64,000 nt of DNA from a virus, in IMG/VR virus record IMGVR_UViG_3300042509_001112, positions 1 through 64,000 of that record; one strand, written 5' to 3'. The translations under genes were made by a program, and so were the position numbers. Below, piece after piece: positions 3,001 to 38,126 of the stretch (position 1 is the stretch's first letter; the number at the start of each line of letters is the position of its first letter). Below the pieces are notes generated by a model. That model did not search any database, was not told where the DNA came from, and worked only from the letters and a program-made list of their open reading frames with translations.

Positions 3001-3035
3001 AACCATTTGAAAGAGATAAGAATAATGAGTATTAA
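1..3035 (+). CDS. C-terminal part of a very large, probably virion-packaged (cargo/ejection) protein; 5' end lies outside the window
   Basis: Frame is open upstream of the ATG at 9 (cag tta atg). >1000 aa, last gene of a + strand block converging on the replication block, where crAss-like phages place giant virion proteins. No catalytic motif recognised. Confidence 0.55.
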   Translation, partial: QLMLYKYFEYVKQEYQTIVNNYLDGLNNITKDIDNPDSPEYLSNDKILDLKADITIFKSIAASSSEFLKTLPNLSEDKKIEYMNAINILGGKTDALAKILQQKLIDRNLSASQQELLKGDKSISWWDKYFRKFSGINNTIFKEAYNKISKANDNTRLSLQSFSKKLKKFDQEIQKWGQSNGMPGFSVYKLLVNEKTGNLHTKIKGDFYDKLKVARDAKDDSFLKKHLRFKDNYKEIYEERKLKFMATNSISIADQDNSSILDDWMKENNPDNINNKVKYSDYWYIYQEIDESTLIESDFNPDFLKIKNNKPLLDYYNFWNDSMEEFRILLDLPYNKIPNNFIPNIKADLVEQYLTGNFTLSTDMMKNMMSVQENVTTYRQDTMTVRTEIDPDTGLAKREVPRIFVNPLINQQGEIDNTLKSFDLSSSIVLFAEMAYNYNNLKEIEANMEALKEILATKGVVETTSDGTTKSISGVNTPNREKSKQSDESKTFEQLVNFHLYGISTQGNELGQLLLKAKNYQQLKQLALAFKSATVNLMGARTNALFEGEKGYFYTKQQFRKSLNDRFRNKELYFALANFFQPYANKRGADIAKEFSSKNKIAKLINYDTLLAAFRSGDEHVDEQVMYSMLQNYTIINGQLTRLTKKDREAGTYKSLLDTSRLEGDDLIIDGIIDKNGLTKEGVRLYSEFRGNVMATVNTIKGGVNAEDLNAFNTTMFGKLVMAFRGWLPALAEERFRGFGEGLVNIFVNNSNRSSLKYSPRTRTITEARYTAILTDQLGVDEKASFRLLGYIAQNVARLGFEVVTFGGFFDKMSATSPLRYQVNEHRARVAFEHFKLQNPNIPAIANGTYRFEDFLEYKQGQIKALATELRFILGIYFLLGALAGGGDDDEKYYKKNLATREFYRTLNRYRRELVGIINPADWYALFKNPIPIMALGDDFIKTLGNTFDESLDIFGEAEGRSLIHPLGKTGKKAKKKDDTPLFYYSFKWLYGFQLAKLFEPFERDKNNEY

Positions 3036-3040
3036 AATAA

Positions 3041-3065
3041 AAAGGGGAGTTATTAGCTCCCCTTT
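3041..3065. terminator. Bidirectional intrinsic terminator between convergent gene blocks
   Basis: AAAGGGGAG-TTATTAG-CTCCCCTTT 9-bp stem flanked by A/T runs, between stop codons at 3035 (+) and 3070 (-). Confidence 0.8.
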
Positions 3066-3069
3066 CTTA

Positions 3070-3312
3070 TTATGCCTTATTAGCTTGTTTAATAGCCTTT
3101 TTAGCTCGATCAATTGATTTAAAACTACCTAGGTATACTCTAGTACCATTAATAGTAGGACGTGCCATATAAGTCACATTATCAGGGTTATTGTTAGAAA
3201 CATAGATTCCTTTAGGAAGTGTTTCACCTGTATTTGTAACACGCTTACCTTTAATAGTTTTAGTAGTTACACATTTAATTTTACCTTTTGTAGTTCCTTT
3301 ACCTTTCTTCAT
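3070..3312 (-). CDS. Small AP2-like DNA-binding protein
   Basis: LPKGIYV...YMARPTINGTRVYLGSFKSIDRAKKA resembles the AP2 domain of phage HNH-AP2 proteins; start placed at MKKGKG (3312) to avoid overlap with phoH. Confidence 0.55.
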   Translation of the reverse strand: MKKGKGTTKGKIKCVTTKTIKGKRVTNTGETLPKGIYVSNNNPDNVTYMARPTINGTRVYLGSFKSIDRAKKAIKQANKA

Positions 3313-4003: not shown

Positions 4004-5875
4004 TTATTTTACTTCACAACCAGCTGCTCCACAAGCTATTTCATCAACTAATGTAGTATTATCATCAGCTTCAATAACTTTAGTAAGATCAATAGAATGA
4101 ACATGTTTAATCATTTCTTCATATTGCTCTTTAGTTATATCTTCAAAAGGAGCTTGTACATAACTACCACCATCATAAGGTAAAACAGATAGACCATTAA
4201 AATAAGATCTATTAATCCACATCCATTCACCTACAGTTTCCCACTCAGTATCTTTTACAGATATAGTAGCAGATATGTTGTGAGTATTTTCACCTGCATT
4301 ATGACCTGGTTTAATCCAAGTTTCATTTAAAAGCTTAACTTTATTAAGTAACTCTAAAGCTGTTTCTTTGTTTCTAATAGTAGCACCTTCAGGAGCTTTA
4401 ATAGGAATTTCTACTACAGCACTATTAGGAATCATCTTATAGTCTTGTACAATCTCAGGATGATTAACACTTAGATACTCATAGATAGCTTCAGATTTAT
4501 TCATTTGCATTCTTCTAATGTAGTAATCATTATGCCAAGCATGAATACCTGAACTTACACCTAATACTAAACTAGTAGTACCAGATGGTTTAATACAAGT
4601 TGTTCTAGCTGCAGAATTAATACCTATATAGTTAGCTACTCGTTTATTAGTTTCAATAACAACTTCTGTAGCTTCTCTAGGACTATACTTAAATACTTCA
4701 TTAGAAGCAATACCAGTCATTCCTATACCTATTAGAGCATCTTTCTCAGTAGTTTTCTTCCAGATAGGTCTTAAGTAATGAAAATCTGTAAAACCTGCTT
4801 GTAATGTACCAAAGAATGCAGCAGCTTGTGCTCTTTCATTATAGTCTTGTTGTGATTCTAAATTTGATACATTAATTTCAGATAAATTACAGAACTGATA
4901 AGGTCTTAATGCAATTTCACAGCAAGGATTAGTACCCCAATCTGGGTTATTAGTAAAATAAATACCTGGTTCTCCACTATTAGATAACTCAATTTTCTTC
5001 CATAAGTTTAAGAAAAATTCTTCTGATATCTTATGTCTTACTAAGACAGCAGAGTTATTAGCTCTACCTCTTTGAGGATTTTGTTCCCACCAATTACCAA
5101 ACTTACAAGTAAGCATAGCTTCATCATCTGCATTAAATAAACAGATTAATGCTGCTCTACGAATACCTCCTGCTAGTACTGAATCAGCTAAGTGACATAC
5201 AATATCATGTACTTCTAATGATGTTAATTTTTCACCATTATTCTTTCTATCAAGAATTCTTTCTATTTCAAATAAACACCTCATAAGGGGCTCAGGCCCA
5301 GGGGCTTTTCCCCCAGCAGTAATAAGTCTTTGTCCTTTAGGTCTAATATCACTAAAATCAAATTTAGGTTTAGTAGTTCTAAGCCCAAAATAACTAGCCA
5401 TAAGATGTCTTACAGCATCAGCCCAACCTTCAATACTATCACCTACAAGATACTTTTGTTCCTTAGTAGGTTTATGTATTTCAGGTAACTTATCAACATG
5501 ATTATTCTGAACAGAATATCCGACACCTGTACCTCCTAATAAGAGAAACATAATTTCACTAAAACTTCTATAGTCATCTATAGGTAAATAACAACAATTA
5601 TAAATTCTAGCTTCATTCTTTTCAATAGCAGGACCAGAAAATTGCATAGCTCTCATACTAGGCAACACTTTCTTATCATATATAAATTTTGATTGATGAA
5701 TAATATCTTCTTTTAAATGAGGATATTTCTTCAACATCATATTTATATACCTGTCTACTACTTCACTATAGGTTTCTCTTCTTCTTAAAGAAGAGTTATA
5801 CTTCGCATATTTGTTAAAAACTACGATGTCACTTAATACTTCAATTGAGGTTTCTTTTTGTTTGTTTTCTATCAT
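4004..5875 (-). CDS. nrdJ: Class II (adenosylcobalamin-dependent) ribonucleotide reductase
   Basis: PSMR, YNCC, GTGVG, GGIRRAA, TNPCCEI, CNLSEIN, TTCIKPSGT, C-terminal CGAAGC; no small subunit gene nearby. Confidence 0.92.
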   Translation of the reverse strand: MIENKQKETSIEVLSDIVVFNKYAKYNSSLRRRETYSEVVDRYINMMLKKYPHLKEDIIHQSKFIYDKKVLPSMRAMQFSGPAIEKNEARIYNCCYLPIDDYRSFSEIMFLLLGGTGVGYSVQNNHVDKLPEIHKPTKEQKYLVGDSIEGWADAVRHLMASYFGLRTTKPKFDFSDIRPKGQRLITAGGKAPGPEPLMRCLFEIERILDRKNNGEKLTSLEVHDIVCHLADSVLAGGIRRAALICLFNADDEAMLTCKFGNWWEQNPQRGRANNSAVLVRHKISEEFFLNLWKKIELSNSGEPGIYFTNNPDWGTNPCCEIALRPYQFCNLSEINVSNLESQQDYNERAQAAAFFGTLQAGFTDFHYLRPIWKKTTEKDALIGIGMTGIASNEVFKYSPREATEVVIETNKRVANYIGINSAARTTCIKPSGTTSLVLGVSSGIHAWHNDYYIRRMQMNKSEAIYEYLSVNHPEIVQDYKMIPNSAVVEIPIKAPEGATIRNKETALELLNKVKLLNETWIKPGHNAGENTHNISATISVKDTEWETVGEWMWINRSYFNGLSVLPYDGGSYVQAPFEDITKEQYEEMIKHVHSIDLTKVIEADDNTTLVDEIACGAAGCEVK

Positions 5876-11731: not shown

Positions 11732-11785
11732 AACCTAGATTTATGTTAATTAATAATTAATTTAATTTATTTAATTTAGTATTGA

Positions 11786-12334
11786 TTAAAATGGTAGCGA
11801 ATCTATTTGATCAGTTACTTTAGCACCATTAGCTTCTACAGTAGCTTTATTTACACGTTTAAGATCATACTCAATATTTGGATTATAAGTAAGAGCACTC
11901 ATCTCAGATGTAACTGTCATAGGTTCAGCAAAATTAGGTAAACCTAATACAGTCTTAACATATACTTTACCATCACGTTGAGATACATATTCCTCACCTG
12001 TAAATTTCATTCTTAGTTTCTTACCACTAAGAATCTTATTAATATCTTGTAAAGTTGTTGCAGAATTAACTACATTCTCATCAACAACTTTAGTCATCAT
12101 ATGTTTTAGTTTCCTCATAGTATATTGAGGAGCATTACCTTCCATAGACATATCAATATTAAGTTCTGCACCATTATCTAAACTAAATGGTACACGAATT
12201 ACTGCTTTACCATTAGGAGTTGTTTCTGATGTGATTGTACCTATTGTTACATTATCATGTACTCCTGGTTTAACAGATGGTTTAACACTTGAACCTGATT
12301 GAACGTCACTGAAATTAAATGTAATATTACTCAT
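11786..12334 (-). CDS. Putative single-stranded DNA-binding protein
   Basis: Between AAA ATPase and primase; acidic C-terminus ending DSLPF typical of SSB tails; start moved to MSNITF. Confidence 0.6.
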   Translation of the reverse strand: MSNITFNFSDVQSGSSVKPSVKPGVHDNVTIGTITSETTPNGKAVIRVPFSLDNGAELNIDMSMEGNAPQYTMRKLKHMMTKVVDENVVNSATTLQDINKILSGKKLRMKFTGEEYVSQRDGKVYVKTVLGLPNFAEPMTVTSEMSALTYNPNIEYDLKRVNKATVEANGAKVTDQIDSLPF

Positions 12335-33428: not shown

Positions 33429-34051
33429 TGTTTTAGTGTTAGTTTGCCGTTAATAAATTTTACTTCCCATTCTGTTTTGGGTTGAAGAGATTTAATGGTT
33501 CTATCTAATACTTCTTCTTCGTTTTGAAGAGGTTTACCTAATTGGGCATATAATTCTTGGTTAATACCCAATTGAACTCCTACATAAAAGATTTTCCCCA
33601 CATCCTCCTCTGTATATTTCTTCTCCTTGTTATCTTCAAGGGCTTGGGTGTATGCCTCAACATAAGTTGAAACCATACTTCTCCAATAATCTGTGCTTCT
33701 TGTAGTTTGTCTTGTTGACCAATTATGTGCCTTCTTCTCAACATCAATCTCACCAATTAGTTCTTTGACTTCTTGTAAAGATATTGGCTTAGTTTTAAGA
33801 TTAAGTATCTTACCACAACACAACATAGTATTACACATCCATTGTTTTCCATTTACAGGTGTCCACATTCTATCACATTCAAGTGGTTGTGTTGAGTGGG
33901 TGATTTTTATTTTATATCCTCCAGTAACATGATTATTACTACCAGTTCTTATTTCTTTTTGTTTATCATCCCAATAATAATCTGTTTCAGAGAAATCTAA
34001 GGAATTATCTACAACAATATAGTAATCTGTGTTTATTTTTATTAGTTTCAT
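33425..34051 (-). CDS. Hypothetical protein
   Basis: 208-aa ORF, ATGA overlap with the HNH gene. Confidence 0.6.
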   Translation of the reverse strand: MKLIKINTDYYIVVDNSLDFSETDYYWDDKQKEIRTGSNNHVTGGYKIKITHSTQPLECDRMWTPVNGKQWMCNTMLCCGKILNLKTKPISLQEVKELIGEIDVEKKAHNWSTRQTTRSTDYWRSMVSTYVEAYTQALEDNKEKKYTEEDVGKIFYVGVQLGINQELYAQLGKPLQNEEEVLDRTIKSLQPKTEWEVKFINGKLTLKQ

Positions 34052-34052
34052 A

Positions 34053-34910
34053 TTAAAATATATATCTTATTGTGTTCCATGGTATTATTTTATTGTGTAA
34101 TTCAATCCATTGATTAATAAATTCAGCTTTTAATTTATGGTTGTATCTAATATTTTCCCCACCATATTGAGATATTTTAAATTCTTGTATTTCTGGTTTC
34201 CATAATAAATGCTCACCTGATAAGTTATTATCTAAATTATAATGATGTTTACTTGCATTATGAGTAAGAAATATTACTTCACATTTAACTATATCTTTGT
34301 AATCTACATAAGTATTAACATAATCAAATAAATCTTCATAATCTTGTAACCAATTATCATATACAACTACAGGACTAAAGTTAATATGTACATCATAACC
34401 TGCATCTATAAAAGCATCAATAGCTTTGATTCTATCAATTATCTTAGAAGTATTAGGTTCTAACTCATTTGATATGTTTTGAGGCATTAAACTAAATCTA
34501 ATACGTATTTTACCTTCAGGATTAAATTTAGTTAAATTAGGATTTACATATTTAGTAGCTAAGCTACCCATTGCTATTGGATGTTCTTTAAAGAATTGAA
34601 ATATTCTTTCCCATTCATGATATTTAGCATGCAAAGCAAAATCTTCATTACAAGATAAATCATATGTTACATATTGATGGTGAGTTTGATTAGGTTTATC
34701 TACACTAGCAAACCATGCATGATTATTAATTTCTGTTAATATATCATTAGTATTTTTAGATATAGATAATCCAGTATGGTTATGTCTTTTCATATAACAG
34801 TAAGAACAATTATATAAACAGCCATAACCAAAACTCGGACTAATAAAATCAGTAGACCTACCACTAGGTCTTATTAACATAGATTTTCTATTTATCTGTT
34901 TTATTATCAT
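34053..34910 (-). CDS. Spore photoproduct lyase-like radical SAM protein
   Basis: GCLYNCSYCYM (CxxxCxxC), YDLSCNED, ATKY, RIRFSL, RIKAI...GYDVHINFSP, IRY near C-terminus: SplB-like layout. Confidence 0.8.
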   Translation of the reverse strand: MIIKQINRKSMLIRPSGRSTDFISPSFGYGCLYNCSYCYMKRHNHTGLSISKNTNDILTEINNHAWFASVDKPNQTHHQYVTYDLSCNEDFALHAKYHEWERIFQFFKEHPIAMGSLATKYVNPNLTKFNPEGKIRIRFSLMPQNISNELEPNTSKIIDRIKAIDAFIDAGYDVHINFSPVVVYDNWLQDYEDLFDYVNTYVDYKDIVKCEVIFLTHNASKHHYNLDNNLSGEHLLWKPEIQEFKISQYGGENIRYNHKLKAEFINQWIELHNKIIPWNTIRYIF

Positions 34911-35094
34911 TTTGTTTAATCAATGAACTTAAAAATATTTTCATTGTTCTACCACCATCTTGCATACTAATTTCTGCAATATCAAAATCACCTAACTCTT
35001 TATATAGAGTTAACATTCTACCAACAGAATAATCATTTTTAGCATGATTAATTACTTCTATTCTTGTTATTTTACTATCATCAATTCCTTTCAT
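34888..35094 (-). CDS. Hypothetical protein
   Basis: 68-aa ORF (ITRIEVI...SMQDGGRTMKIF). Confidence 0.55.
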   Translation of the reverse strand: MKGIDDSKITRIEVINHAKNDYSVGRMLTLYKELGDFDIAEISMQDGGRTMKIFLSSLIKQNDNKTDK

Positions 35095-35618
35095 TATTTC
35101 ATATTTTTAAGTTTATAAATATAACTACTATCTTCAGCATATTTACCATCAATAGCTTTTAAATATCTATTTTGTATTTTTATATAATGTTCTAAACACT
35201 CAGTATAAGTATTATATACTCTGTATTTATTACCTTTTTTAATACCTAATAAGTTTTTATTAGTTTTAACTAATTTAGATGTATAATTACCTGATTCTAA
35301 CTTAATTTGAGCTAATGCTACATTAGGTAATACACAACCTAATTCTACTAATTTAACAGTAATAGCACTATCATTTAATTCAACATCTTGAACTTTATTA
35401 GTTTTAATAGTTTTAAATATTTTATAATCATTAGCTGAATTACAAGTAAATACTAATACAGTAATAACTGTTATTACAAGAAATAGTGTAATTGCTGTTA
35501 CAACACTATCATTGTAAGTTTTACATTCATTTTTACATTTTTTACAAATGTATTTGTTGTCTACTACTTGCTTAACATTTTCATAACAACAACTTGATTT
35601 TAAGATTGGATTTTTCAT
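35094..35618 (-). CDS. Membrane-anchored glucosaminidase (GH73-like peptidoglycan hydrolase)
   Basis: Cys-rich N-terminus, one TM helix, then ALAQIKLESG...NKNLLGIK...KYAED. Confidence 0.65.
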   Translation of the reverse strand: MKNPILKSSCCYENVKQVVDNKYICKKCKNECKTYNDSVVTAITLFLVITVITVLVFTCNSANDYKIFKTIKTNKVQDVELNDSAITVKLVELGCVLPNVALAQIKLESGNYTSKLVKTNKNLLGIKKGNKYRVYNTYTECLEHYIKIQNRYLKAIDGKYAEDSSYIYKLKNMK

Positions 35619-35637
35619 ATTATTTTATTTAATAATT

Positions 35638-35728
35638 TGTAGTCAGGACGAGATTTGAACTCGCATCTCCTATACTAATATAGGGCGTTACCAATTGTGG
35701 TATTTATTCCCACTTACGCCACCTGACC
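35638..35728 (-). tRNA. Atypical tRNA-like element 1 (tRNA-Leu-derived scaffold, 19-nt D-loop insert, non-canonical anticodon loop)
   Basis: Acceptor GGTCAGG/CCTGACT, D-stem GCG/CGC, T-arm GCGAG-TTCAAAT-CTCGT; anticodon arm CCTAT-ATTAGT-ATAGG has a 6-nt loop; no encoded CCA. Confidence 0.65.
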
Positions 35729-35747
35729 ATTTTGCCACTTATTCTCT

Positions 35748-35808
35748 TACCCTTTTATATCGTGACTAACCTGCTTTACTTAAACGAGTTTTTCAAGGGT
35801 ACAGGTTA
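35748..35808 (-). ncRNA. Pseudoknot element between tRNA-like elements 2 and 1
   Basis: TAACCTG/CAGGTTA and TACCCTT/AAGGGTA interleaved 7-bp helices. Confidence 0.45.
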
Positions 35809-35810
35809 TT

Positions 35811-35894
35811 TGTAGTCAGGACAGGATTGATAGAAGTAACTACTCATCCTCACTTACTTTTGATTGGATAAACTACCAATTCCGCCACCTGACT
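35811..35894 (-). ncRNA. tRNA-like element 2 (acceptor ends retained, interior replaced)
   Basis: 5' AGTCAGGTGGCGGAATTGGTAG and 3' AATCCTGTCCTGACTACA flank sequence lacking the 3' D-stem, anticodon arm and 5' T-stem. Confidence 0.55.
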
Positions 35895-35901
35895 ATATTA
35901 T

Positions 35902-36156
35902 TTATACATTATGTGTTAATTCATCCATTGTTGGTGTGAACCTATACGCAGCTTCTTGAAGAATTGAAAACTGAACCATCATCATACGTTCGTAAGTCTC
36001 TCCACCTGCAATCTTTTGAACCATTTTACACTTTTCCCTTATAATACCTTCCATACGGATAATACCTTGGGGACCATCTTCTTTCATTTCTTGAATTACC
36101 TGAGCCAATTCTTCATCGGACATTTCAGAAAATACTTTTGTTACTTCGTTTACCAT
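35902..36156 (-). CDS. Hypothetical protein bracketed by tRNA-like repeats
   Basis: 84-aa ORF, visibly more CpG than the genome average. Confidence 0.6.
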   Translation of the reverse strand: MVNEVTKVFSEMSDEELAQVIQEMKEDGPQGIIRMEGIIREKCKMVQKIAGGETYERMMMVQFSILQEAAYRFTPTMDELTHNV

Positions 36157-36175
36157 GTTATTTGTTTTTAAATTT

Positions 36176-36337
36176 AGTAGTCAGGACAGGATTCGAACCT
36201 GTATGATAGTAGGGTATGTACACTCCCCATTTGAAGAACTACCTTAAGCGTCTACCAAGTTACATTGACCTCGTAGTGGATTCTAACCACATTATTTTTA
36301 CGTCTAGAACGAGGTTGTAACATTCCGCCACCTGACT
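36176..36337 (-). tRNA. Atypical tRNA-like element 3 (64-nt structured D-loop insert, expanded anticodon region)
   Basis: Acceptor AGTCAGG/CCTGACT, GGCGGAA[64 nt]TTGGTAGACGC, perfect T-arm ACAGG-TTCGAAT-CCTGT. Confidence 0.65.
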
Positions 36338-36340
36338 ATG

Positions 36341-36420
36341 TTGAGGATGAGAAGTCCTCTGTGTTGTAGTGGCTTTTCCATTCCCACTCTCATTCATTCC
36401 TTTCTCAAGGGAACAACACA
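36341..36420 (-). ncRNA. Three-way junction plus hairpin with potential kissing loops, immediately 5' of tRNA-like element 3
   Basis: TGTGTTGT/ACAACACA, TCC/GGA, AGTGG/CCACT, GAGGA/TCCTC helices; loops TGAGAA and TTCTCA are complementary. Confidence 0.5.
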
Positions 36421-36427
36421 TTAATTA

Positions 36428-36453
36428 AGAGAGTAGTATTTCTACTACTCTCT
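36428..36453. terminator. Hairpin (terminator or processing site) after 36463..37062
   Basis: AGAGAGTAGTA-TTTC-TACTACTCTCT perfect 11-bp stem, ~10 nt after the stop codon. Confidence 0.55.
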
Positions 36454-36462
36454 ATTAATTGA

Positions 36463-37062
36463 TTAAGCTAAAGACTCTAATACAGCTTTAGTACTAGCTG
36501 CTACTGTAGCAGTAGGTACAGATACTTTAGTTTCAACTCTCATATCTACATCACCAAATACATTAGCATTTGCAGATTCTTTATGATTGGTATAATCATT
36601 TACAAAGAATCCAGTAGAATACTGAATAGGTTGAACTACATTACCAGCACTGTCTTTAATTACATGCTTATCTTGCAACTGTTCTTTAGTTACAATACCA
36701 GCACTTAGAGCATACTTTTGCTCATCTGTTAATACATCAACAAGTTTATTGCTGTATTTCTTGCAGATTCTAGCTTTAGGTTTAGTAGCAAGCATTGCTT
36801 CTACTTGTTCTTTAGTTACACCATTTGGAACTAATACCCATGCCATACGAGTACTCTTGTACTCAGTTCCTTCGATATTAAATGCTTCAATATCAAATAA
36901 ACTATCAGACATACTATTCTCTACTTTCTTACCTGGATAAGTAGAAATAATTATTTGTCTAATTTGAGCTTGCTTAAATTCAGGCCCTTTTAATGAATCT
37001 ACAATACCATCTACAGTAATTGCGTTAAATTCTTTGCTGATTCCATTTACAGTTGTTTTCAT
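36463..37062 (-). CDS. Hypothetical protein
   Basis: 199-aa ORF with genome-typical codon use. Confidence 0.65.
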   Translation of the reverse strand: MKTTVNGISKEFNAITVDGIVDSLKGPEFKQAQIRQIIISTYPGKKVENSMSDSLFDIEAFNIEGTEYKSTRMAWVLVPNGVTKEQVEAMLATKPKARICKKYSNKLVDVLTDEQKYALSAGIVTKEQLQDKHVIKDSAGNVVQPIQYSTGFFVNDYTNHKESANANVFGDVDMRVETKVSVPTATVAASTKAVLESLA

Positions 37063-37093
37063 CTTGATTTAGTTTTAATAATTAATAATTAGT

Positions 37094-37456
37094 TTAATAG
37101 TTTGGTTCTTGTATAGCAATTTTAACTGCTTGTTTAAACTTTTGTTGAAATTTAGGAAACTTAATAAACATAAAGCAATCAGCTAGTTCATTTCGATGAT
37201 TTAGTTCAATTTTAAATGCATCTAACCATTCTTTGCTATTACGCCCATTAATTTTATCCTTAGGCTTATTTTGTAATTGTTTAATACAACTTCTGATATG
37301 ATTGGTATCCATATATTTTAAATATGTATCACCCCATTTCCAGTTGCTAGAGCTACTAAATTTTCTAACAATACCATTTTCTTTTTGATAAATGCTAGAA
37401 TTTAATTTAGCAAATCTTTCTTTAGGACTCATCTGAGTCTGTTGCGTATTTTTCAT
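37094..37456 (-). CDS. Hypothetical protein
   Basis: 120-aa ORF (MDTNHIRSCI...W..AFKIEL..R). Confidence 0.55.
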   Translation of the reverse strand: MKNTQQTQMSPKERFAKLNSSIYQKENGIVRKFSSSSNWKWGDTYLKYMDTNHIRSCIKQLQNKPKDKINGRNSKEWLDAFKIELNHRNELADCFMFIKFPKFQQKFKQAVKIAIQEPNY

Positions 37457-37664
37457 TGTTTTCTAATTGTTTTATATCAACAATATTTTGCTGATTGGTT
37501 TGTAATTCGTTTTCTGATTTAGTTTTCCAAATAGGTAGTCTATTAACACAGATACCAATAGGAAGGTATAGAATACCTCCTATTGATTTTCCGTATTGCT
37601 TTAAATCAGACCATTTGCTAGCTTTAACAGTTAGCTTTGTATCTATATTTAAAGGTTCTTTCAT
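37422..37664 (-). CDS. Hypothetical protein
   Basis: 80-aa ORF with ATGA overlap. Confidence 0.5.
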   Translation of the reverse strand: MKEPLNIDTKLTVKASKWSDLKQYGKSIGGILYLPIGICVNRLPIWKTKSENELQTNQQNIVDIKQLENNEKYATDSDES

Positions 37665-37945
37665 GCTACTTTAAGTACTATGTTGAACATTAATTTTCTT
37701 TTGTATCCAACAATAGCTTCAATAAATTGATCTCTTAAAGTTTTATTGTAACTACTTAATTTAGCTTTTTTAATAAGAGCTCTTTCATTTTCAGATTTAG
37801 CTTCTCTTAAATCAGTTAATGGTAATAGGTGAGGAGGTCTAAGTCCTTCTTTAACCATTTGAGCATCATTAGAGCAATTAACTTGTAATTTAGCTAATTC
37901 AGGATCGTTTGGATGTCTTAATACAGATTTCATGTTATTCTTCAA
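37661..37945 (-). CDS. Hypothetical protein
   Basis: 94-aa ORF. Confidence 0.5.
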   Translation of the reverse strand: MKNNMKSVLRHPNDPELAKLQVNCSNDAQMVKEGLRPPHLLPLTDLREAKSENERALIKKAKLSSYNKTLRDQFIEAIVGYKRKLMFNIVLKVA

Positions 37946-38126
37946 TTAATTGGTTAATAATGTCTTCCTCACTATTTAAGATTTCTCTTACATCATATAA
38001 TTGTTCTTCTAAATCAGCTTTTTGTTCTAAAAAGTCTTCTTCAGTAATACCAATCATTTGATCATAATCAGATTGTAGTGAATCAATTTGATTTTGTAAA
38101 TCTTTTTCTAATTCAGATGCTGTCAT
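37935..38126 (-). CDS. Small highly acidic coiled-coil protein
   Basis: 63 aa, very rich in D/E. Confidence 0.5.
   Translation of the reverse strand: MTASELEKDLQNQIDSLQSDYDQMIGITEEDFLEQKADLEEQLYDVREILNSEEDIINQLIEE

Follow-up and report, generated by a model that had tools for sequence, protein, structure and literature searches.

What are three tRNA-like repeats doing among the small protein genes of a phage in which no tRNA can be recognized, and are they tRNAs at all? The window (the whole stretch of DNA analysed, 64,000 nucleotides) comes from a complete, 97.8-kb lake crAss-like phage, and neither the window nor the whole genome contains a canonical tRNA (ARAGORN, default settings: 0 genes). 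The three elements, E3, E2 and E1, lie in the same orientation on the minus strand, alternate with small protein genes and are, by whole-genome search, the only copies of their sequence frame in this phage. Within the window, the 11-mers GTCAGGTGGCG and GTCCTGACTAC each have three exact copies confined to E3, E2 and E1, with no further match having fewer than two mismatches, and a blastn search of positions 34000-38000 against GenBank phages returned no match. The locus is laid out as follows, with scores from R1, a provisional family model built in this analysis whose members typically reach 50-80 bits.

36428..36453, minus strand: perfect hairpin 3' of the upstream 199-aa gene, kept in contigs L003, L004 and L005
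36343..36420, minus strand: upstream structured RNA module ending 4-5 nt before E3 (predicted fold), kept in L005
36178..36337, minus strand: E3, a tRNA-Leu-like frame of 160 nt, with AGTCAGG from 36337, the discriminator A at 36178 and C at 36177
36259..36321, minus strand: D-loop insert of E3, 63 nt, a nested minihelix
36157..36177, minus strand: C74 and A/T-rich leader from E3 to the cassette-gene ATG (minus-strand reading)
35902..36156, minus strand: accessory "cassette" gene encoding 84 aa, with its TAA at 35904-35902
35813..35894, minus strand: E2, a degenerate frame (R1, 34.6 bits; predicted fold)
35730..35811, minus strand: structured spacer between E2 and E1 (fold z = -2.15), kept in L004 and L005
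35640..35728, minus strand: E1, a tRNA-like frame (R1, 53.7 bits; cloverleaf fold, z = -2.9)
35619..35639, minus strand: C74 and A/T-rich leader from E1 to the following ATG (minus-strand reading), 8 nt longer in L005
35094..35618, minus strand: downstream gene for a 174-aa glucosaminidase-domain protein of lysis type (Pfam PF01832, E = 9.6e-13)

The hairpin at 36428..36453 is possibly a terminator or an RNA-stabilising stem, and in the spacer AACCTG/CAGGTT and ACCCTT/AAGGGT could pair, on a by-eye reading, in a pseudoknot arrangement. A 77%-identical copy of the upstream module lies in L112 between tRNA-Met (11751-11820) and tRNA-Thr (11916-11988). A sub-threshold Rfam match to CRISPR-DR6 at 37716-37752 (E = 0.39) is regarded as chance.

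Several measurements bear out the original observations: E3 and E2 share their ends (ATAGTCAGGTGGCGGAAT, 18 nt, at the 5' side and AATCCTGTCCTGACTAC, 17 nt, at the 3' side, both on the minus strand), 22 nt run from the last acceptor base to the next ATG behind both E3 (36179 to 36156) and E1 (35641 to 35618), and E2 begins, with AGTCAGG, 7 nt past the cassette-gene stop codon. The 84-aa gene is also CpG-richer than the genome, as had been suspected (observed/expected 0.81 versus 0.22, in the top 2.9% of 255-nt windows), on a count of only 6 CpGs. Its product has no Pfam or PHROG match.

None of the three elements is a decoding tRNA. Rfam searches over the window gave zero matches reaching gathering level; E3 scored 27.7 bits against the tRNA model (RF00005), below the gathering score of 29 and aligned with insertions of 69 and 36 nt, while E1 and E2 were absent from the Rfam tRNA matches even at E <= 10. 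ARAGORN found no tmRNA, and with regard to Y RNAs and YrlA-Ro60 there was no Rfam YrlA match and no TROVE domain in the complete phage. A standard anticodon arm, with its 5-bp stem, 7-nt loop and usual distance to the D and T arms, is absent from all three elements: E1 has a 16-nt hairpin with a loop of 4-6 nt at that position, E2 has nothing, and in E3 the loop is interrupted by a hairpin and six extra bases follow the D stem. What they do possess is the frame of a tRNA. The acceptor stem AGTCAGG/CCTGACT is exact in E3 and E2 and reads GGTCAGG/CCTGACT in E1, giving a G1-U72 (G-U) pair, and each element carries T at -1, A73 and C74, the ends typical of the family described below. The family D arm, TGGCGGAAT..GGTAGACGC, and T arm, ACAGG-TTCGAAT-CCTGT, are both found in E3, where the D loop holds the 63-nt insert, and both in variant form in E1.

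The interiors of E3, E2 and E1 are mutually unrelated. E3 is predicted to fold as a cloverleaf with extra hairpins, and R1 splits it in two (29.3 + 15.6 bits). Its interior, unlike that of a tRNA, has a stem bearing the loop CTTCAAA and an inner hairpin, a type also seen, with a compensatory change, in L022 and L117, and its D-loop insert forms the helices GTTACA/TGTAAC and ACCTCGT/ACGAGGT and the hairpin GTGG-TTAGAAT-CCAC. L112 and L127 have frames with this D-loop module too, at 92.6% and 86.7% identity respectively, and there ACCCCGT/ACGGGGT replaces ACCTCGT/ACGAGGT. E2, of which L004 holds an identical copy, retains the acceptor stem, the 5' part of the D arm and the 3' part of the T loop (AATCC) without the 5' half of the T arm or the 3' strand of the D stem, and its predicted fold is a long hairpin (z = -4.0). 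E1 bears a further hairpin of 17 nt in its D loop; its ortholog in L005 is without that hairpin, and its acceptor (AGTCAGT/ACTGACT), D and T stems have all undergone compensatory change. We read E3, E2 and E1 as tRNA-Leu-framed RNA genes in which unrelated folded inserts replace the anticodon region. The likeness to class II tRNA-Leu extends to the D arm TGGCGGAATTGGTAGACGC, A73, C74 without CCA, the TTCGAAT T loop and the 7+5-bp acceptor/T stack, whereas the frames lack both an anticodon arm and a regular variable arm.

By membership and by fold, E3, E2 and E1 belong to a large, essentially phage-only RNA family, a description of which we found neither in Rfam nor in the literature searched; the motifs of three tRNA-mimic families described in a bioRxiv paper differ from those seen here. 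The 16-mer AGTCAGGTGGCGRAAT matches at least 120 IMG/VR contigs and is followed 60-190 nt later by the 3' frame in 108 of 142 copies, and R1 gave 219 matches from 100 sources. The tRNA-Leu-like frame (acceptor AGTCAGG/CCTGACT, D arm, T arm, U-1, A73 and C74) is near-invariant, the invariance of the acceptor stem being due in part to ascertainment by an exact 16-mer, and it is combined with hypervariable, structured interiors, which fall into 119 classes among 141 copies, are 25-140 nt long and are unrelated across classes. Frame helices are 97.4% paired with double-sided changes in 14 of 15 pairs, in a model-fitted alignment with some true tRNAs among its sequences, and stems covary within interior classes as well (for example, GTTGAA/TTCAAC versus GAGCAA/TTGCTC). 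The frame ends are U-1 in 84%, A73 in 88% and C74 in 97% of copies, with an encoded CCA in 3%; true tRNAs on the same contigs have C74 in 97% and CCA in 9%. The tRNA genes of Flavobacterium and Sediminibacterium MAGs likewise have C74 without CCA, and the D arm of the frames is identical to that of tRNA-Leu(CAA) in the Flavobacterium MAG. A host origin of the frame was sought by scanning GTDB genomes with the 16-mer, and the matches are mostly chance (several hundred expected by estimate in 596 Gb). Among the 120 matches listed, out of at least that many, eight had the full frame; seven of these lie on MAG contigs of 1.7-33 kb, none of the seven in a cultured isolate, and a host tRNA with this acceptor stem may yet exist.

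What sets this phage lineage apart is that the frames are interleaved with small protein genes and mark the places where relatives differ. Homology breakpoints with relatives fall exactly at frame ends. Relative to L005, the window carries a 528-bp insert (36340-35813) that corresponds exactly to E3, the cassette gene and E2; in L004 a different gene occupies the cassette position and homology restarts at 35894, the first base of E2; and L127 shares only the module 36201-35875, comprising the E3 T arm, the leader, the gene and the first 20 nt of the next frame. The left homology limit with L003 and L004 is the hairpin at 36428..36453. The 84-aa protein has homologs in L127 (89%), flanked by two frames, and in L128 (73%), with frames absent nearby. 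The leader ..TTTAAAAACAAATAAC-ATG is also found before the same gene in L127, there behind a frame with another interior, and before a different gene in L006. The expectation that relatives would carry differing genes between homologous repeats was therefore borne out, and the cassette idea is supported by these comparisons. Besides flanking genes, the interiors also appear to be exchanged within the family: among pairs of copies that share an interior across contigs, neither 300-nt flank is similar in 19 of 26. One contig, L068, has a collapsed "empty" frame.

The proposed constancy of the 22-nt spacing, in contrast to its presence at both E3 and E1, did not hold: the E1 ortholog in L005 lies 30 nt from its ATG, the E3-type leader in L006 measures 20 nt, and family-wide the distances range from 13 to 25 nt, peaking at 15-17 and 21-23. 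Tight ORF junctions are nonetheless enriched about threefold over true tRNAs on the same contigs, under a crude ORF calling (ATG, at least 30 aa): an ATG lies 13-25 nt past 41 of 134 frames (31%) versus 27 of 220 true tRNAs (12%, p = 4e-5), and the frame starts no more than 12 nt from a stop codon in 43 of 143 cases versus 26 of 218 for true tRNAs. In L127, five small genes form a chain with a frame before each, the junctions measuring 7-11 nt and 14-22 nt. Roughly two thirds of the family do not adjoin an ORF, and punctuation therefore cannot be the primary role of the family.

These observations led us to a proposal that we hold to be somewhat probable as a whole, in which the frames are tRNA-shaped RNAs, transcripts are cut at them by RNase P and RNase Z, and the frames serve as homology for recombination. 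Because they share a strand, the frames and the surrounding small genes would most likely be transcribed together. A sigma-70 promoter scan found fewer sites than in shuffled sequence, the sigma-70 model being uninformative for this host group. Each frame resembles a host pre-tRNA at its two ends: host RNase P would cut at the 5' end, and the 3' end would be matured by RNase Z and then by the CCA-adding enzyme. As the genome of the complete phage lacks genes for a CCA-adding enzyme, RtcB, Ro60/TROVE and RNA ligase, host enzymes would be needed. The cutting would release stable, tRNA-shaped small RNAs and thereby divide the transcript into mRNAs of one gene each, beginning about 20 nt upstream of the ATG. 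The tRNA-type flanks (U-1, C74, no CCA) make such processing of mRNA at the acceptor ends plausible, and from them we infer cleavage; co-transcription and any benefit of the frame to its downstream gene are likewise putative. At the DNA level, the near-identical frames could act as portable homology, recombination within or at them passing interiors, whole frames and between-frame genes among phages. It is possible, more tentatively, that the invariant frame is the "plug" of an integrase-free cassette system common to many phages, combining RNase P/Z cutting with shared homology for the trading of RNAs and genes.

Several points weigh against this proposal. E2, without half of its T arm, may be a substrate of neither RNase P nor RNase Z. 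After cleavage, the upstream mRNA would have no 3' hairpin and the downstream mRNA would start with a 5' monophosphate, ends that could be destabilising rather than helpful. The spacing varies, from 22 nt in the window to 30 nt in the E1 ortholog, and the 528-bp indel is clean, with no remaining frame copy, where simple homologous recombination of one direct frame with the other would leave one.

Rather unlikely, in our assessment, is that the frames are tRNA-mimicking RNAs with a job of their own (decoys or sponges for host tRNA-targeting defences or tRNA enzymes, non-decoding Leu-charged frames, or a chassis for regulatory RNAs), with gene adjacency reflecting genome compactness and no punctuation of mRNA. 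Most members do lie in tRNA arrays or distant from ORFs, the interiors are structured and conserved inside classes, and the frame retains A73 and the tRNA-Leu D arm; charging by E. coli LeuRS needs A73 and the tertiary core of the D and T loops, not the anticodon. The threefold excess of tight junctions and the alternating frame-gene chains argue against mimicry as the full account, as does the complementarity of the window interiors, which together with two spacer modules matched the phage genome in antisense no better than shuffled controls. Mimicry is, moreover, not exclusive of processing, since the release of such RNAs requires excision anyway.

The clean indel would also fit a mobile DNA unit of which the frames are the ends, E3, gene and E2 having been inserted in one piece, either MITE-like with TAGTCAGG/CCTGACTA as terminal inverted repeats or at an integrase-type site such as those at tRNA 3' ends. 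We consider this decidedly unlikely. The 528-bp segment indeed runs exactly from the 5' end of one frame to the 3' end of another, with no copy left, the 3' ends of E3 and E2 form a 17-nt direct repeat, and the entire elements in unrelated flanks and the collapsed frame of L068 fit as well. Yet the junctions show no evident target-site duplication except a trivial AT, the compensatory stem changes and the conserved unpaired C74 and U-1 point to selection on RNA rather than on DNA ends, and the tRNA signatures of the T and D loops are irrelevant for a transposase.

That the elements are decaying pseudogenes, functionless relics of a lost tRNA cluster, is strongly disfavoured and very improbable. 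The truncation of E2, the failure of default ARAGORN to find any of the three elements, the narrow shortfall of E3 under the Rfam threshold and the lack of a true tRNA in the phage would all be expected of relics, but decay is hard to reconcile with a frame kept near-invariant around unrelated interiors in more than 100 otherwise unrelated contigs, with compensatory change in 14 of 15 pairs, with an E1 ortholog whose fold is preserved through double changes and with C74 retained in 97% of copies. We reject the reading of E3 as a genuine intron-containing opal-suppressor tRNA (anticodon UCA) with E1 and E2 as odd decoders: ARAGORN calls E3 only when introns are allowed, as tRNA(tca) with a 68-nt intron, and the CTTCAAA loop conserved in L022 and L117 resembles a UCA anticodon loop, but its stem closes only past an inner 18-nt hairpin and is separated from the D stem by six extra bases, the E1 loop has 4-6 nt, E2 has no T arm, we know of no bacterial splicing route for a 63-nt D-loop insert, and the genes for terminase, portal and capsid all remain full length when translated with code 11, so that no UGA read-through is needed. 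Other intron-mode calls were likewise implausible (a tRNA-Phe reaching from E2 to E1 over an intron of 160 nt, and E3 as tRNA-SeC(tca)).

The closest precedent for processing at the frames is found in plant mitochondrial t-elements, tRNA-like but non-canonical structures that adjoin protein genes and have the conserved T arm GGTTCRANYCC, at whose ends RNase Z and RNase P generate the mapped 5' and 3' termini of mRNAs and which can persist as RNA once excised (Forner et al. 2007, PMC1920247). The t-elements, and mitochondrial tRNA punctuation generally, would share their mechanism with that proposed for the phage frames. The frames differ in being unrelated in sequence, in their bacteriophage rather than organellar setting, and in being near-invariant and multi-copy over hundreds of genomes, with hypervariable structured interiors and a coincidence with recombination breakpoints; cleavage is mapped for t-elements, whereas the frames offer tRNA-type flanks and ORF adjacency. 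Engineered tRNA scaffolds (e.g. PMC3753655), in which an RNA of interest takes the place of the anticodon arm and is processed and stabilised by cellular tRNA enzymes, are a laboratory device and resemble the frames in design only. Integron gene cassettes are similar in that small accessory genes lie between repeated folding boundaries and gene content varies among relatives, but the frame boundaries are tRNA-shaped RNA genes, taken to be without integrase and attC, and, judging from the breakpoints, exchange at frames appears to be homology-based. The family is of interest for a single frame that is recognisable by sequence in at least 100 uncultured phage contigs and surrounds unrelated structured interiors. 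If RNase P and RNase Z do cut it, mitochondrial tRNA punctuation would have a counterpart in bacterial viruses and the tRNA-scaffold trick for RNA expression a natural form, and if recombination at frames is general, it would give one concrete route by which phages exchange small accessory genes in a mosaic manner.

To our knowledge, small stable phage RNAs with tRNA-like ends have had no explanation since T4. The T4 species 1 and 2 RNAs (rnaC and rnaD), from the T4 tRNA gene cluster, are small, stable and phage-encoded, as the frame RNAs would be, and are annotated beside tRNA genes; the present phage differs in having no tRNA cluster and in the alternation of its frames with protein genes. 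As candidate homologs the two were rejected, R1 giving 18.8 bits on rnaC and nothing on rnaD. The 3' end of rnaC does consist of a T arm and an acceptor-like strand, and its score lies below most true tRNAs of T4 (15-35 bits) and far under the members of the family (50-80 bits), making rnaC an analogue of the frame family rather than a member.

The three tRNA-like elements (E3, E2 and E1) are the only ones of their type in a complete 97.8-kb IMG/VR phage genome, of which the window forms part and in which no canonical tRNA was found. PHROG matches for its terminase, portal and major head protein, and the identity of its capsid protein (about 32%) to those of gut and Flavobacterium crAss-like phages, mark it as an environmental crAss-like phage, probably of Bacteroidota. 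The genes around the cluster all lie on one strand, and the local features are as follows.

37716-37752, minus strand: weak Rfam hit to CRISPR-DR6, below threshold at 21.7 bits (E = 0.39) and probably due to chance
36343-36420, minus strand: structured RNA module, its 3' limit 4-5 nt upstream of E3
36337-36178, minus strand: E3, tRNA-like, co-oriented with E2 and E1
35902-36156, minus strand: cassette gene, an 84-aa ORF between E3 and E2
35894-35813, minus strand: E2, tRNA-like
35730-35811, minus strand: E2-E1 spacer, with interleaved complementary pairs AACCTG/CAGGTT and ACCCTT/AAGGGT
35728-35640, minus strand: E1, tRNA-like
35094-35618, minus strand: glucosaminidase-domain protein gene, directly after E1
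34053-34910, minus strand: SPL-like radical SAM gene (Pfam PF20903, E = 4e-21), downstream of the glucosaminidase gene

On the minus strand the layout first described, three elements with common ends and a bracketed gene, is confirmed. The 5' ends of E3 and E2 are identical over 18 nt and their 3' ends over 17 nt, E3 and E1 each have exactly 22 nt between the final acceptor base and the following ATG, and the cassette-gene stop codon lies 7 nt before the E2 acceptor stem. Core 11-mers of the elements occur in exactly three copies each, all at these sites. The gene is also CpG-rich as proposed, with an observed/expected ratio of 0.81 (top 2.9% of windows, from 6 CpGs only) against 0.22 for the genome, which at 28% G+C is strongly CpG-depleted.

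The outer part of these elements, a tRNA-Leu-like frame of acceptor stem, D arm and T arm, recurs widely among phages. Its 16-mer AGTCAGGTGGCGRAAT is present in at least 120 IMG/VR contigs, and among the matches listed 108 of the 142 copies are followed by the matching 3' strand, nearly always behind ACAGGTTCGAATCCTGT. Between the constant D and T arms lies an interior of 25-140 nt that varies between copies (119 classes in 141 copies among the matches listed), with stems that covary inside a single class. R1, a covariance model of the frame built here, gave 219 matches, drawn from 100 sources. Pairing across the three frame helices reaches 97.4%, and double-sided changes occur in 14 of 15 pairs, above every shuffled and slid control, in an alignment that was fitted to R1, includes some true tRNAs and derives from a seed set gathered by exact 5' word. 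Many copies sit within tRNA arrays of phages; contig L018 has as many as ten within 3.5 kb. In bacterial genomes the 16-mer matches are mostly chance, with a frame present at 8 of 120 among the matches listed; the seven of these eight with records examined lie in MAG contigs of 1.7-33 kb, none of them from a cultured isolate. We found no entry for the family in Rfam and no description in the literature searched, and E3, E2 and E1 belong to a phage RNA family that is apparently undescribed.

The flanks of the frames resemble those of tRNA precursors, with U at -1 in 84%, A73 in 88%, C74 in 97% and CCA encoded in 3%; for true tRNAs on these contigs the figures are 97% for C74 and 9% for CCA. C74 without CCA is likewise the pattern in tRNA genes of one Flavobacterium and one Sediminibacterium MAG, and the D arm of the Flavobacterium tRNA-Leu(CAA) is exactly that of the frame. 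Across these Bacteroidota MAGs (L256-L261) and the phages L003-L130, C74 stands at about 97% in tRNA genes and a full CCA is rare. Since C74 of the frames lies outside every helix, its conservation is best accounted for by a 3'-end maturation shared with real tRNAs. In bacterial pre-tRNAs lacking CCA, RNase Z cleaves at the discriminator before CCA is added, and RNase P recognizes the acceptor/T-arm stack and elbow; by analogy, RNase P and RNase Z with CCA addition may act on the frames. No CCA-adding enzyme, RtcB, Ro60 or RNA ligase is encoded in the complete phage.

An ORF of 30 aa or more that opens with ATG begins 13-25 nt past the acceptor end in 41 of 134 frames (31%) versus 27 of 220 canonical tRNAs (12%) at the same loci (p = 4e-5), and a stop codon lies within 12 nt before the start of 43 of 143 frames versus 26 of 218 tRNAs. 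The tight juxtaposition of frame and ORF is therefore real and frame-specific. Rather than keeping to the fixed 22 nt of the original prediction, the distance spreads over a range whose modes are 15-17 and 21-23 nt: the E1 ortholog in the relative L005 stands 30 nt from the same downstream gene, and an E3-type leader (the stretch from acceptor end to ATG) gives 20 nt in contig L006. The 22 nt of E3 recurs in contig L127 because the whole leader is homologous.

The cassette and recombination half of that interpretation is supported, the fixed ruler is not: relatives differ in the genes that lie between frames, and homology breaks at frame ends, as predicted. In the closest relative, L005 (identity 96.5% upstream, 87.7% downstream), homology ends at 36341 and restarts at 35812, so the window carries a 528-bp insert that is exactly E3, gene and E2. 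Against a second relative, L004, homology ends after a hairpin at 36427 and restarts at 35894, where E2 begins, with 99.3% identity; a chimeric frame and an unrelated gene of 54 aa occupy the stretch between the breakpoints in L004. The otherwise unrelated 59-kb contig L127 has only 36201-35875 in common with the window (93.6% identity), a module of E3 T arm, leader, 84-aa gene and first 20 nt of the next frame, and the flanking interiors differ on both sides. L127 chains five small genes with a frame before each (stop to frame 7-11 nt, frame to ATG 14-22 nt); its cassette-gene ortholog (3001-3255) has an in-frame TAA at codon 15, GAA in the window, and is either a pseudogene, mis-sequenced at this point or translated into a shorter product from an internal Met. 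A further homologue in contig L128 (73% identity) has no frames nearby. Of 26 pairs of family copies that lie on different contigs but share an interior, 19 show no relationship in either 300-nt flank. The E3 D-loop insert (63 nt, 36259-36321, minus strand) is itself a module, a nested minihelix that includes a T-arm-like hairpin (GTGG-TTAGAAT-CCAC), and it recurs in frames of L112 (about 4228-4292) and L127 (about 2668-2736), with ACCCCGT/ACGGGGT replacing ACCTCGT/ACGAGGT, other interiors and, in L127, even another acceptor stem (GGCAAGG/CCTTGCT). What the window newly contributes is the link between the frame family and exchange of small protein genes.

We propose that frames are co-transcribed with flanking small genes and that host RNase P, plus RNase Z with CCA addition, would excise them, freeing tRNA-shaped RNAs and leaving mRNAs that start about 20 nt before the ATG, while the constant frames would serve as shared homology for swapping interiors, whole frames and intervening genes. 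Processing at frames is plausible from sequence, and the reading as a whole seems to us somewhat the better bet. Against it, E2 is defective, cutting might destabilise mRNAs, the majority of family members do not adjoin ORFs, and the clean L005 indel suits insertion of a unit more than a simple crossover between direct repeats. An autonomous tRNA-mimic function with incidental gene adjacency is a possible but unlikely alternative. A little less likely still is that the frames are a mobile DNA unit or att-type site. That the elements are pseudogenes is very improbable, and that they are real suppressor tRNAs even more so.

E3, E2 and E1 are not decoding tRNAs. ARAGORN in default mode called none of them, the frames tested negative for membership of tRNA, tmRNA and YrlA, and the Rfam tRNA model scored E3 at 27.7 bits (threshold 29), and this only by passing over 69 D-loop and 36 anticodon-region nucleotides. 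The predicted folds are a cloverleaf with a large extra D-loop hairpin and odd interior (E3), a cloverleaf whose D loop bears a hairpin and whose anticodon arm is replaced by a 16-nt stub (E1), and a long hairpin lacking the 5' half of the T arm (E2). The UCA-like loop of E3 does not indicate recoding, as the structural genes are intact under code 11.

[quoted passage not shown] The closest phage system is the T4 species 1 and 2 RNAs, which are analogues and not family members, R1 giving 18.8 bits for rnaC and nothing for rnaD.

In L112 (11823-11911) a copy of the 36343-36420 module, with 77% identity, sits immediately between tRNA-Met and tRNA-Thr, and the module is thus probably a further small RNA freed by tRNA-end processing. 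The start of the E2-E1 spacer resembles part of it (CCCTTGAGAAA / CCCTTGAAAAA); the spacer is kept in L004 and L005, and its pairs could form a pseudoknot. On the minus strand of contig L068, at oriented position about 4099, lies a collapsed 'empty' frame, AGTCAGGTGGCGGAATCCTGTCCTGACTA, whose D-loop GGAAT is fused straight to T-loop AATCC, pointing to a deletion or insertion at the common GAAT microhomology; E2 is joined at the identical T-loop point.
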